A stretch of DNA of 64,000 nucleotides, taken from NCBI RefSeq assembly GCF_056746865.1, contig NZ_CM163382.1. One strand, given 5' to 3'. The translations under genes were made by a program, and so were the position numbers. Below are positions 10,603 to 53,871 of the stretch, piece after piece (position 1 is the first letter of the stretch; each line of letters opens with the position of its first letter). Below the pieces are notes generated by a model. That model was given only the letters and a program-made list of their open reading frames with translations, ran no database searches and was not told the DNA's origin.

Positions 10603-12845
<2,243 letters not shown>

Positions 12846-26104: not shown

Positions 26105-26140
26105 AATGCTTGACTCTGTAGCGGGAAAGCGTATTATGCA
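26105..26140 (+). promoter_or_regulatory. rrnA P2 promoter (-35 TTGACT 26110-26115, -10 TATTAT 26132-26137)
   Basis: Canonical rrn P2 sequence ttgactctgtagcgggaaagcgtattatgcacacc. Confidence 0.8.
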
Positions 26141-26174
26141 CACCCCGCGCCGCTGAGAAAAAGCGAAGCGGCAC

Positions 26175-36284: not shown

Positions 36285-37217
36285 TTACTTATTCTGACGC
36301 TGTGATGACATCAACGACGTCAGAAGTCGGTCTTTTTCCTGCCACAGTGAGTTCAGCCATTGCTGAAAATGGCGCTTAAAGCTTTTGTCATTGATGTAGT
36401 CGCCATGTAACTCATCGGCAATAGGCTGTAAATCCACATGTACGACAATTCGCGTCAGTTTACCGCTTAACATATCGAAGAACGGCTGACGGTTATTGTC
36501 CGGATAACATAGCGTAACATTAAGCAGTTTATCGAATTGTTTACCCAGTACATTTAGCGCCATCGCAATGCCTGCCGCCTTTGGTGGCAACAAGTTTTGA
36601 AAAGTGGAGTGCGTTTGCTGATGTTTTTCTTGCGTGAAACGGGAGCCTTCAACGAAATTAACAATGGTGGTGGGATGCAGGCGAAACTTTTCACAAGAAC
36701 GCCGAGTAGTTTCAACATCTTTACCACGTCTCTCCGGATGACGTAATAAATAAGCGCGGGAATAACGCTTCATAAACGGCATATCCAGCGCCCAGCATGC
36801 CAGGCCAAGAAAAGGCACCCAGGCCAGCTGCTGCTTGAGGAAATATTTATTCATCGGAATGTGCTTACGAAACAGCACGCACAGTACGACAATATCTGCC
36901 CAACTACGGTGGTTACAAATAAGCAGATACCAGTTTTTCTTACTTAACCCTTCCAGCCCGTGAACTTCCCATTGCAGGTGTGGGTTCAAATGCAGTAATA
37001 CCGCCAGACCTTCACACCAGCAATACATCATAAAATCACAAAAACGCGAAACCTTTCGCCAAATGACTGGCACAGGAAGCAATAGTTTTACAATCCCGGC
37101 AATGATGATCGGGACGGAGCAAAAAATAGTGACCAAAATGGTCAATACGATACTCAGCAAAAGGGTTATCGCAGCGAGTATTCTCGTCATAATGAATTTA
37201 TTCAAAAAGTTAGCCAT
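36285..37217 (-). CDS. yihG: PlsC-family acyltransferase YihG (membrane)
   Basis: ORF 36285-37241; probable start at 37215-37217 ([16 protein letters not shown]...), 310 aa; HxxxxD acyltransferase motif (CNHRSWAD). Confidence 0.82.
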
Positions 37218-37448
37218 AGACAGTGCGCTAAAGAAGCGCAAGGCGCAGATTTTAGCAGAAAACGACCCAAATAACGGATGATCCTTAAGGAGAAAAATAA
37301 TTCATATCTATCCACATTAGAAAAAATCCCATCATCTCAATTATTAGGGATGGTCTTATTTTTAACTTCATGAAAAACAAAGACAAACATCATGCTGTAA
37401 AAAGCATGATAATAAATTAAAAGCGATGTAAATAATTTATGCACAAAG

Positions 37449-37457
37449 TTATCCACA
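37449..37457 (+). promoter_or_regulatory. DnaA box (TTATCCACA) in the polA promoter region
   Basis: Perfect 9-mer TTATCCACA about 125 bp upstream of polA; a second near-match TCTATCCACA at 37307-37316. Confidence 0.65.
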
Positions 37458-37580
37458 TGACGATTTGCGAGCGATCCAGAAGATCTACAAAAGATTTTCA
37501 CGAAAAGCGGTGAAAAACTCATGTTTTCATCCTGTCTGTGGCATCCTTTACCCATAATCTGATAAACAGGCACGGACATT

Positions 37581-40367
37581 ATGGTTCAGATCCCCCAAAA
37601 TCCACTTATCCTTGTAGATGGTTCATCTTATCTTTATCGCGCATATCACGCGTTTCCCCCGCTGACTAACAGCGCAGGCGAGCCGACCGGTGCGATGTAT
37701 GGTGTCCTCAACATGCTGCGCAGTCTGATCATGCAATATAAACCGACGCATGCAGCGGTGGTCTTTGACGCCAAGGGAAAAACCTTTCGTGATGAACTGT
37801 TTGAACATTACAAATCACATCGCCCGCCAATGCCGGACGATCTGCGTGCACAAATCGAACCCTTGCACGCGATGGTTAAAGCGATGGGACTGCCGCTGCT
37901 GGCGGTTTCTGGCGTAGAAGCGGACGACGTTATCGGTACTCTGGCGCGGGAAGCCGAAAAAGCCGGGCGTCCGGTGCTGATCAGCACTGGCGATAAAGAT
38001 ATGGCGCAGCTGGTGACGCCAAATATTACGCTTATCAATACCATGACGAATACCATCCTCGGCCCGGAAGAGGTGGTGAATAAGTACGGCGTGCCGCCAG
38101 AACTGATCATCGACTTCCTGGCGCTGATGGGTGACTCCTCTGATAACATCCCTGGCGTACCGGGCGTCGGTGAAAAAACCGCGCAGGCATTGCTGCAAGG
38201 TCTTGGCGGACTGGATACGCTGTATGCCGAGCCAGAAAAAATTGCTGGGTTGAGCTTCCGTGGCGCGAAAACAATGGCAGCGAAGCTCGAGCAAAACAAA
38301 GAAGTTGCTTATCTCTCATACCAGCTGGCGACGATTAAAACCGACGTTGAACTGGAGCTGACCTGTGAACAACTGGAAGTGCAGCAACCGGCGGCGGAAG
38401 AGTTGTTGGGGCTGTTCAAAAAGTATGAGTTCAAACGCTGGACTGCTGATGTCGAAGCGGGCAAATGGTTACAGGCTAAAGGGGCGAAACCCGCAGCCAG
38501 GCCGCAGGAAACCAGTGTTGCAGACGAAGCGCCAGAAGTGACGGCAACGGTGATTTCTTATGACAACTACGTCACCATCCTTGATGAAGAAACACTGAAA
38601 GCGTGGATTGCGAAGCTGGAAAAAGCGCCAGTATTTGCATTTGATACCGAAACCGACAGCCTCGATAACATCTCTGCCAACCTGGTCGGGCTTTCTTTTG
38701 CTATCGAGCCAGGCGTAGCGGCATATATTCCGGTTGCTCATGATTATCTTGATGCGCCCGATCAAATCTCTCGCGAGCGTGCACTCGAGTTGCTAAAACC
38801 GTTGCTGGAAAATGAAAAGGCGCTGAAGGTCGGGCAAAACCTGAAATACGACCGCGGTATTCTGGCGAATTACGGAATTGAGCTGCGTGGGATTGCGTTT
38901 GATACCATGCTGGAGTCCTACATTCTCAATAGCGTTGCCGGGCGTCACGATATGGACAGCCTCGCGGAACGTTGGTTGAAGCACAAAACCATCACTTTTG
39001 AAGAGATTGCGGGTAAAGGCAAAAATCAACTGACCTTTAACCAGATTGCCCTCGAAGAGGCCGGACGTTACGCCGCCGAAGATGCGGATGTCACCTTGCA
39101 GTTGCATCTGAAAATGTGGCCGGATCTGCAAAAACACAAAGGGCCGTTGAACGTCTTCGAGAATATCGAAATGCCGCTGGTGCCGGTGCTTTCACGCATT
39201 GAACGTAACGGTGTGAAGATCGATCCGAAAGTGCTGCACAATCATTCTGAAGAGCTCACTCTTCGTCTGGCTGAGCTGGAAAAGAAAGCGCATGAAATTG
39301 CAGGTGAGGAGTTTAACCTTTCCTCCACCAAGCAGTTGCAAACCATTCTGTTTGAAAAACAGGGAATTAAACCGCTGAAGAAAACGCCGGGTGGCGCGCC
39401 GTCAACGTCGGAAGAGGTACTGGAAGAACTGGCGCTGGACTATCCGTTGCCAAAAGTGATTCTGGAGTATCGTGGTCTGGCGAAGCTGAAATCGACCTAC
39501 ACCGACAAGCTGCCGCTGATGATCAACCCGAAAACCGGGCGTGTACATACCTCTTATCACCAGGCAGTAACTGCAACGGGACGTTTATCGTCAACCGATC
39601 CTAACCTGCAAAACATTCCGGTGCGTAACGAAGAAGGTCGTCGTATCCGCCAGGCGTTTATTGGGCCAGAGGATTATGTGATTGTCTCGGCGGACTACTC
39701 GCAGATTGAACTGCGCATTATGGCGCATCTCTCGCGTGACAAAGGCTTGCTGACCGCATTCGCGGAAGGAAAAGATATCCACCGGGCTACGGCGGCAGAA
39801 GTGTTTGGTTTGCCACTGGAAACCGTCACCAGCGAGCAACGCCGTAGCGCGAAAGCGATCAACTTTGGTCTGATTTATGGCATGAGTGCTTTCGGTCTGG
39901 CGCGGCAATTGAACATTCCACGTAAAGAAGCGCAGAAGTACATGGACCTTTACTTCGAACGCTACCCTGGCGTGCTGGAGTATATGGAACGCACCCGTGC
40001 TCAGGCGAAAGAGCAGGGCTACGTTGAAACACTGGACGGACGCCGTCTGTATCTGCCGGATATCAAATCCAGCAATGGTGCTCGTCGTGCAGCGGCTGAA
40101 CGTGCAGCCATTAACGCGCCAATGCAGGGAACCGCCGCCGACATTATCAAACGGGCGATGATTGCCGTTGATGCGTGGCTACAGGCTGAGCAACCGCGTG
40201 TGCGTATGATCATGCAGGTACACGATGAACTGGTATTTGAAGTTCATAAAGATGATGTCGATGCCGTCGCGAAGCAGATTCATCAACTGATGGAAAACTG
40301 TACCCGTCTGGATGTGCCGTTGCTGGTGGAAGTGGGGAGTGGCGAAAACTGGGATCAGGCGCACTAA
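37581..40367 (+). CDS. polA: DNA polymerase I
   Basis: 928-aa [28 protein letters not shown]... with 5'-3' exo, 3'-5' exo and polymerase domains. Confidence 0.98.
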
Positions 40368-40514
40368 GATTCGCCTGAACATGCCCTTTTTTCGTAAGTA
40401 AGCAACATAAGCTGTCACGTTTTGTGATGGCTATTAGAAATTCCTATGCAACAACTGAAAAAAAATTACAAAAAGTGCTTTCTGAACTGAACAAAAAAGA
40501 GTAAAGTTAGTCGC

Positions 40515-40623
40515 GTAGGGTACAGAGGTAAGATGTTCTATCTTTCAGACCTTTTACTTCACGTAATCGGATTTGGCTGAATATTTTAGCCGCCCCAGTC
40601 AGTAATGACTGGGGCGTTTTTTA
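40515..40623 (+). ncRNA. spf: Spot 42 small regulatory RNA
   Basis: GTAGGGTACAGAGGTAAGATGTTCTATCTTTCAGACCTTTTACTTCACGTAATCGGATTTGGCTG... ending in terminator GCCCCAGTCAGTAATGACTGGGGCGTTTTTT; recognised by sequence. Confidence 0.92.
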
Positions 40624-41651: not shown

Positions 41652-41896
41652 ATAGAGCGAGGACGCTAACAGGAACAATGACTCAGGATGAGGGTCAGGA
41701 GCGCCAGGAGGCGAAGACAGAGGATTGTCAGGAAGACAAACGTCCGGAGACGTAATTAAACGGAAATGGAATCAACACGGATTGTTCCGGCTAATGGAAA
41801 AACAGGGTGTGTTGGCGGCCTGCAAGGATTGTAAGACCCGTTAAGGGTTATGAGTCAGGAAAAAAGGCGACAGAGTAATCTGTCGCCTTTTTTCTT
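41652..41896 (+). ncRNA. csrC: CsrC small RNA (CsrA-sequestering)
   Basis: ATAGAGCGAGGACGCTAACAGGAACAATGACTCAGGATGAGGGTCAGGAGCGCCAGGAGG...; dense AGGA/CAGGA motifs; intrinsic terminator GGCGACAGAGTAATCTGTCGCCTTTTTT at 3' end. Confidence 0.88.
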
Positions 41897-41962
41897 TGCT
41901 TGCTTTCTGTTAGATTCCGCCGCAAATCTATACTGAATAAAACGGCTAAAAGACGAACCATT

Positions 41963-48582: not shown

Positions 48583-48720
48583 AGCGAAATCTGTGCCAAC
48601 TTTTAAATTGCCCCTAAAAGGCGTTATCATGCTTAACATCGTGCAAAAGGGCTGCACCATGATATGAATGTTGCACCAATATAGTGCTTCAATGGAAACA
48701 TTAAGCACCATATTGGTGCA
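48583..48720 (-). promoter_or_regulatory. glnAp2 sigma54 promoter (TTGGCACAGATTTCGCT at 48583-48599, minus strand) with upstream NtrC enhancer sites (48672-48687 and 48705-48720)
   Basis: -24 GG / -12 GC element on the glnA strand; palindromes TGCACCAATATAGTGC and GCACCATATTGGTGCA further upstream. Confidence 0.8.
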
Positions 48721-48871
48721 ATGACCTTTGGATAACCCTTTTTATGCTCCGTGAAAGCGATCACAAAGGGACTCTGCAATACTTGTTTGCGGAGGATGTT
48801 TGTGATCCTGTTTTGTAGTGCGATTAATCCGTGTACAATAACGCGCTATTTCTAATGCCTGAGGCAAAGTT

Positions 48872-51629: not shown

Positions 51630-53871
<2,242 letters not shown>

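Follow-up and report, generated by a model that had tools for sequence, protein, structure and literature searches.

The DNA between yihG and polA most probably carries a known regulatory site of polA, its DnaA operator. This is a double DnaA box at 37437–37457 that binds DnaA, and bound DnaA has been reported to stimulate polA. The sequences flagged in the original prediction are real DnaA boxes. Binding of DnaA to the double box has already been described and mapped in living cells, and outside oriC, datA and DARS2 few DnaA sites are more strongly occupied. The site links the synthesis of DNA polymerase I (Okazaki-fragment processing, repair) to the initiator DnaA. The connection between DnaA and polA was published in 1997, and genome-wide confirmation followed in 2024; its confirmation from the raw sequence is new in nothing of principle. 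What is added is a module conserved at fixed spacing across three gammaproteobacterial orders, with a list of parts like that of datA. The conserved module and its resemblance to datA together offer a testable reason for an occupancy about ten times that of the equally good double box of nrdA.

The yihG–polA intergenic region

The window, i.e. the whole stretch of 64 kb of E. coli chromosome that was analyzed, includes a 363-bp gap between the divergent genes yihG and polA (Table 1). The gap carries no annotated feature in the RefSeq annotation, and its GC content is 35.5% compared with 51.2% in the whole window. It was matched in 5,425 of the 5,426 complete E. coli genomes, the matches of 100% identity including strain 118UI. 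Two matches to the polA upstream region sit on records labelled as plasmids, and these may be either mis-assigned replicons or plasmid-borne chromosomal segments. In comparison to MG1655, the window shows four intergenic differences in the 363 bp, and the boxes are untouched by them.

Table 1. Coordinates of the genes, DnaA boxes, conserved blocks and predicted elements of the yihG–polA region. Conservation percentages refer to the alignment of 27 Enterobacterales sequences.
Feature	Position	Strand	Remarks
yihG, YihG-type acyltransferase	ATG at 37217	-	Divergent from polA; RefSeq annotation
Distal single DnaA box CTATCCACA	37308..37316	+	One mismatch, at box position 1
Conserved block TATCCACA	37309-16		100%
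Conserved block TAA	37363-65		93%
IHF-like motif TTTCATGAAGTTA (minus-strand reading)	37363..37375	-	Two mismatches to the consensus WATCAANNNNTTR in E. coli
Conserved block TGA	37371-73		99%
Double DnaA box, upstream half TTATGCACA	37437..37445	+	Fits TTWTNCACA; 3 bp 5' of the perfect box
Conserved block CACAAA	37442-47		98%; first five bases of the upstream half vary between genera
Double DnaA box, downstream half, perfect TTATCCACA	37449..37457	+	Direct reading, pattern search
Conserved block TTATCCACA	37449-57		100%
GATC pair, 9 bp apart	37473-76 and 37482-85		Second within AGATCT (37481-86); just downstream of the double box
Putative extended -10 element TGgCATCCT	37539..37547	+	Hexamer CATCCT at 37542-47
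Conserved block TGGCAT	37539-44		100% in Enterobacterales
Conserved block CTT	37546-48		
Conserved block TATG (start codon)	37580-83		
polA, DNA polymerase I, 928 aa	37581..40367	+	Regulated gene; ATG at 37581

Two terminator-like hairpins are present in the gap, one on the plus strand (37331–37354) and one on the minus strand (37411–37388). The former lies in a stretch that varies among E. coli genomes. It covers three of the differences from MG1655, and the remaining one is 14 bp downstream. As terminators both hairpins were taken as chance because of the polymorphic stretch and because they are not conserved between genera. The Rfam scan of the yihG–polA region gave only sub-threshold chance matches, and an RNA element was thus rejected. 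The known sRNAs of the window are all located elsewhere: Spot 42 (40505–40623) directly 3' of polA, CsrC (41652–41905), Erse (10957–11208), ES222 (48683–48790) and isrC (53054–53176).

DnaA boxes and chance expectation

Boxes were searched for with the 9-mer consensus TTATNCACA and its relaxed form TTWTNCACA. The original prediction had named two boxes in the AT-rich gap, a perfect one at 37449–37457 and a near-match at 37307–37316. Both are real and their positions were confirmed, the latter being a 10-mer, TCTATCCACA, that contains the 9-mer distal box at 37308–37316. The third box, TTATGCACA, had been missed, and this is the true partner of the perfect box. The two are co-oriented and, together with the spacer 'aag', join as tTTATGCACAaagTTATCCACAt. 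The distal box is without an adjacent partner, and in E. coli it precedes the start codon of yihG by 91 bp.

The perfect box is the only perfect copy of TTATCCACA in the window. At least one perfect box per 64 kb was found in 41 of 100 shuffles, and the window includes five matches to TTWTNCACA against 5.35 expected. Boxes with at most one mismatch number 30 in the window, three of them inside the 363-bp gap, and the double box has one mismatch among its 18 positions while the next best pair of the window has four. In 20,000 simulated sequences with the dinucleotide make-up of the gap itself, the probability of a perfect box was 0.003, that of at least three boxes with at most one mismatch 0.0004, and that of a double box with no more than one mismatch in total below 5e-5. 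The placement and company of the perfect box are therefore not due to chance, even though one such box per 64 kb is unremarkable.

Two weak pairs resemble a double box. One, 37198–37218 with four mismatches in total, overlaps the start codon of yihG, and the other, 37548–37568 with five, overlaps the surroundings of the predicted polA transcription start; both are probably chance occurrences in AT-rich DNA. A single TTATGCACA box at 26134–26142, which precedes the 16S rRNA gene of an rrn operon by about 185 bp, has no partner and is probably also a chance match.

In vivo occupancy and published regulation

The DnaA ChIP-seq analysis of MG1655 by Stringer, Fitzgerald and Wade (2024; PMC11317965) identified 16 bound regions. 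One of these, 'polA', is centered at 4,046,831 with 123-fold coverage over the control, and its motif tTTATGCACAaagTTATCCACAt is designated the polA "double DnaA box". The 21-mer is present at NC_000913.3 positions 4,046,822–4,046,842 (center 4,046,832) and is identical in the window. The peak center is thus 1 bp off the middle of the double box and 135 bp from the distal box. ChIP-seq data on this locus, which the original prediction had named as its check, are accordingly already published, with the peak on an identical sequence. They bear out the binding of the perfect box, but the unit to which DnaA binds is the double box with its adjacent halves and not the pair of boxes that had been named. 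The footnote to Table 1 of PMC11317965 refers to NC_000913.2; the motifs of polA, purH and datA fit the listed coordinates in NC_000913.3.

A double box was defined in PMC11317965 as two co-oriented boxes 2 or 3 bp apart. The polA site, with co-oriented halves and a 3-bp spacer, has this form and is named in Table 1 of that paper. At purH, binding was abolished when either half was mutated or when 1 bp was inserted between the halves; both halves and the spacing of 2–3 bp were thus needed at purH, and the authors concluded that DnaA binds as a dimer (PMC11317965). The coverage reported for purH was 124-fold against 123-fold for polA, and that for mioC, nrdA and dnaA 25-, 14- and 5-fold, respectively (PMC11317965). 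The sequence of the distal box, CTATCCACA, also occurs in DARS2, as the strong half of a double box there (PMC11317965, Table 1).

According to two papers citing Quinones et al. 1997 (Mol Microbiol 23:1193), DnaA activates polA, especially in stationary phase, and these citations support the DnaA-dependent modulation of polA that had been proposed. The size, direction and conditions of the effect are taken from such secondary citations, and its size and timing are uncertain. The further claim that polA expression is tied to the status of replication initiation appears weaker than was implied: in the proteomics of a datA/DARS1/DARS2 triple deletion, the DnaA regulon was essentially unchanged except for FliC, GlpD and NrdD (PMC12371093). 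Deletion of datA, DARS1 and DARS2 altered the bound fraction of DnaA and the activity of the dnaA promoter (PMC12371093). In a CRISPRi promoter screen the dnaA guide dropped out, and the screen hence holds no data for DnaA.

Conservation of the boxes upstream of polA

The comparison included 80 gammaproteobacterial polA loci, one genome per species, collected with the first 120 residues of PolA as the query. A perfect TTATCCACA was present upstream of polA in 53 of the 80 loci. In 30 of the 32 Enterobacterales the double box was found 95–200 bp before the polA ATG; its upstream half ends in CACA and is separated by 3 bp (aag, aac or gag) from a perfect TTATCCACA. It was also found in the sampled Vibrionaceae, Pseudoalteromonas, Shewanella, Rheinheimera and related genera, and those Vibrionaceae and Alteromonadales loci that carry TTATCCACA have kept the double box with its 3-bp spacer. 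The conservation of the upstream CACA and of the spacer is consistent with a need for both halves also at polA. In the Pasteurellales and in genomes of the Pseudomonas, Alcanivorax and Halomonas type, the double box was absent, the best pair within 500 bp having 4–8 mismatches.

The stink-bug symbiont Pantoea sp. Nvir has a decayed double box, TTATGTGCAaagTTCTCTACA, with five mismatches at the orthologous place, about -152 from the polA ATG. The decay would fit a reduced genome under relaxed selection.

The distal box is likewise conserved. In Enterobacterales it has the form (A/C)TATCCACA and is located 141–142 bp upstream of the perfect box, in Vibrionaceae it is TTGTCCACA at 142 bp, and in Alteromonadales TTTTCCACA or a similar sequence at 129–146 bp. 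When columns with at least 80% identity were counted as conserved in the alignment of 27 Enterobacterales sequences, about 18% of the intergenic columns were conserved, and they mark out the DnaA boxes, the core of the IHF-like motif and TGGCAT (Table 1). Within E. coli, 35-bp stretches with the double box and the distal box were identical in 5,388 and 5,406 of the 5,426 genomes, respectively, while a 35-bp stretch of the DNA between the boxes had a match in just 364.

The gene upstream of polA varies among the taxa, being a divergent YihG-type acyltransferase, a co-directional DsbA, a Vut_1 transporter or a DJ-1/PfpI-like protein. Since the upstream neighbor differs, the module is a feature of polA rather than of yihG.

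IHF-like block and GATC sites

The two conserved blocks between the distal box and the double box together read TAA-N5-TGA, which on the minus strand gives TCA-N5-TTA, the core of the IHF consensus; the flanks are not conserved. In many Enterobacterales and in Aliivibrio, the best match to the IHF consensus between the boxes is on the minus strand at an offset of -86 to -89, and in Alteromonadales on the plus strand at -73 to -76. Perfect consensus matches were found in 11 of 52 loci compared with about 1–2% per shuffled locus. The E. coli copy scores no better than shuffled sequences. The polA locus is not mentioned in the genome-wide IHF work that was consulted (Kasho 2021 with its supplements, the 2026 YgfZ paper), nor in a review of IHF and Fis. 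Binding of IHF upstream of polA may be inferred from the orthologous positions of the matches.

At least one GATC, usually as a pair, follows the perfect box at a distance of 10–37 bp, with shifting positions, in about 20 of 31 Enterobacterales. No GATC was found at the place just after the perfect box in the Alteromonadales loci. A role of these sites in Dam/SeqA control, or as a DnaA-ATP 6-mer, is conjectural.

Promoter prediction

The candidate -10 element of polA, TGGCATCCT, belongs to a motif TGGCAT(C/G/T)CT that is present in nearly all box-bearing loci of the three orders, in most of them 36–50 bp before the ATG. In the Pasteurellales and the Pseudomonas-type genomes this motif is missing, as are the boxes. 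A block TTC(A/G)T(G/C) is located 15 bp upstream of the TGGCAT motif. Read as an extended -10 element, the motif predicts a transcription start of polA at about 37554 and a leader of about 27 nt, and the perfect box would then be centered at about -101. The strict sigma-70 scan gave no site at the TGGCAT motif, and the polA locus is missing from the supplements of Kim 2012 and Ettwiller 2016, in which a start site was sought.

The distance from the box to the promoter motif ranges from 40 to 137 bp among the taxa. The offsets cluster at intervals of about 10–11 bp (R = 0.5, p ~0.004 on unique values; p = 0.06–0.16 once related offsets were collapsed). Activation that depends on helical phasing is no more than a suggestion, as the clustering is not significant after the collapsing of related offsets.

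Two other readings of the promoter were rejected. A promoter beside the double box, with the -35 element TTGCGA at 37465–70, has no acceptable -10 element at 15–18 bp, and the TTGCGA motif is missing outside a part of the Enterobacterales. A sigma-54 reading of TGGCAT is contradicted by the -12 element, the GC of which is lacking in E. coli and most other taxa.

Proposed mechanism and alternative explanations

In the proposed mechanism, the two co-oriented boxes 3 bp apart bind DnaA cooperatively in vivo, probably as a dimer also at polA. The double box is situated about 100 bp upstream of a weak, conserved promoter with a predicted extended -10 element, and bound DnaA would stimulate the transcription of polA, notably in stationary phase as reported in the citing papers. 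The combination of the distal box with an IHF-like site between the boxes suggests looping: a bend at the IHF-like site may allow DnaA on the distal box to join the complex on the double box, probably strengthening the latter. Carried to its full extent, this would be a three-part assembly module for DnaA, consisting of the distal box, the IHF bend and the double box with fixed spacing in Enterobacterales and Vibrionaceae. Such a module is put forward tentatively and is judged rather unlikely. If it were true, IHF-assisted looping would produce the unusually high occupancy by DnaA, and the module may act in the manner of datA by titrating or modifying DnaA near the origin, in addition to tuning polA.

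It is possible, though not probable, that the boxes are mainly a titration sink near oriC, buffering free DnaA with little effect on the transcription of polA. The 123-fold occupancy, comparable to that of purH and approaching those of datA and DARS2 (PMC11317965), agrees with this explanation, as does the location of polA in the origin-proximal zone of high DnaA-box density. The authors of PMC12371093 proposed that promoter boxes may also titrate DnaA, and they found the DnaA regulon unresponsive to altered DnaA-ATP or titration. However, the module stays with the polA promoter across the three orders despite the changes in neighboring genes, which a pure sink would not require, and activation of polA by DnaA has been reported in the papers citing Quinones et al. 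Titration and regulation of polA are compatible and not mutually exclusive.

Another explanation, which appears quite doubtful, is that the single box, IHF site and double box form an IHF-dependent assembly like those of datA or oriC, altering the nucleotide state or oligomerization of DnaA. The list of parts matches that of the minimal datA element, the polA boxes are all co-oriented, the IHF-like core is at a fixed offset and the spacing of 141–142 bp between the boxes is fixed. Against this stand the order of the parts relative to the orientation of the boxes, which is reversed in comparison to datA, the degenerate IHF-like site of E. coli, and the silence of the accessible genome-wide IHF papers on polA.

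That the distal box serves the divergent yihG instead of polA might be thought from its distance of just 91 bp to the yihG start codon in E. coli, but the spacing of 141–142 bp to the double box is kept also where dsbA or another gene replaces yihG, which makes this explanation very unlikely. Functionless chance matches in AT-rich DNA, a reading with which the window-wide counts agree (a perfect box in 41% of the shuffles and TTWTNCACA matches close to the expected number), are refuted by the probability of the double box under the local composition, the ChIP-seq occupancy and the conservation across three orders. The preferred reading is thus the DnaA operator of polA.

Comparison with known DnaA systems

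The polA site of E. coli K-12 (Quinones et al. 1997; PMC11317965) is at the same locus and has the same sequence, and the finding is identical with it. The accessible papers on the K-12 site do not refer to the distal box or to the IHF-like block, nor to conservation outside E. coli.

Among the other double boxes, purH resembles polA in that an imperfect upstream box is separated by 3 bp from a perfect TTATCCACA, and the ChIP enrichments of the two are nearly equal. They differ in that the need for both halves and their spacing has been demonstrated by mutation at purH only. At purH, the scan revealed no accompanying single box of at most one mismatch 141 bp away from the double box. Also nrdA and mioC have paired DnaA boxes that are located upstream of a promoter and bound cooperatively (PMC11317965). 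Their enrichments are far lower, 14-fold and 25-fold, and mioC is repressed and not activated.

Three boxes are essential in the DARS core. Box I of this core is reportedly inverted relative to boxes II and III. A DARS core at polA was rejected: the sole inverted candidate, TTATTTACA at 37427–35 on the minus strand, has two mismatches and its columns are not conserved.

In the minimal datA element, the hydrolysis of DnaA-ATP requires boxes 2, 7 and 3 as well as the IHF site. When datA of MG1655 was mapped, box 1 (ATATCCACA) was followed by the double box 7-2 (TTGTAAACAgagTTATCCACA) and then by boxes 3 and 4; between the double box and box 3, 56 bp past the former, there is a perfect IHF site on the minus strand. 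The double box is thus 5' of the IHF site at datA, while at polA it is 3' of the IHF-like site. The IHF site of datA is perfect while the E. coli polA copy has two mismatches, and hydrolysis is known for datA but not for polA. The two regions are alike in combining a double box that includes a perfect TTATCCACA, an IHF or IHF-like site on the minus strand and a co-oriented single box within about 150–200 bp.
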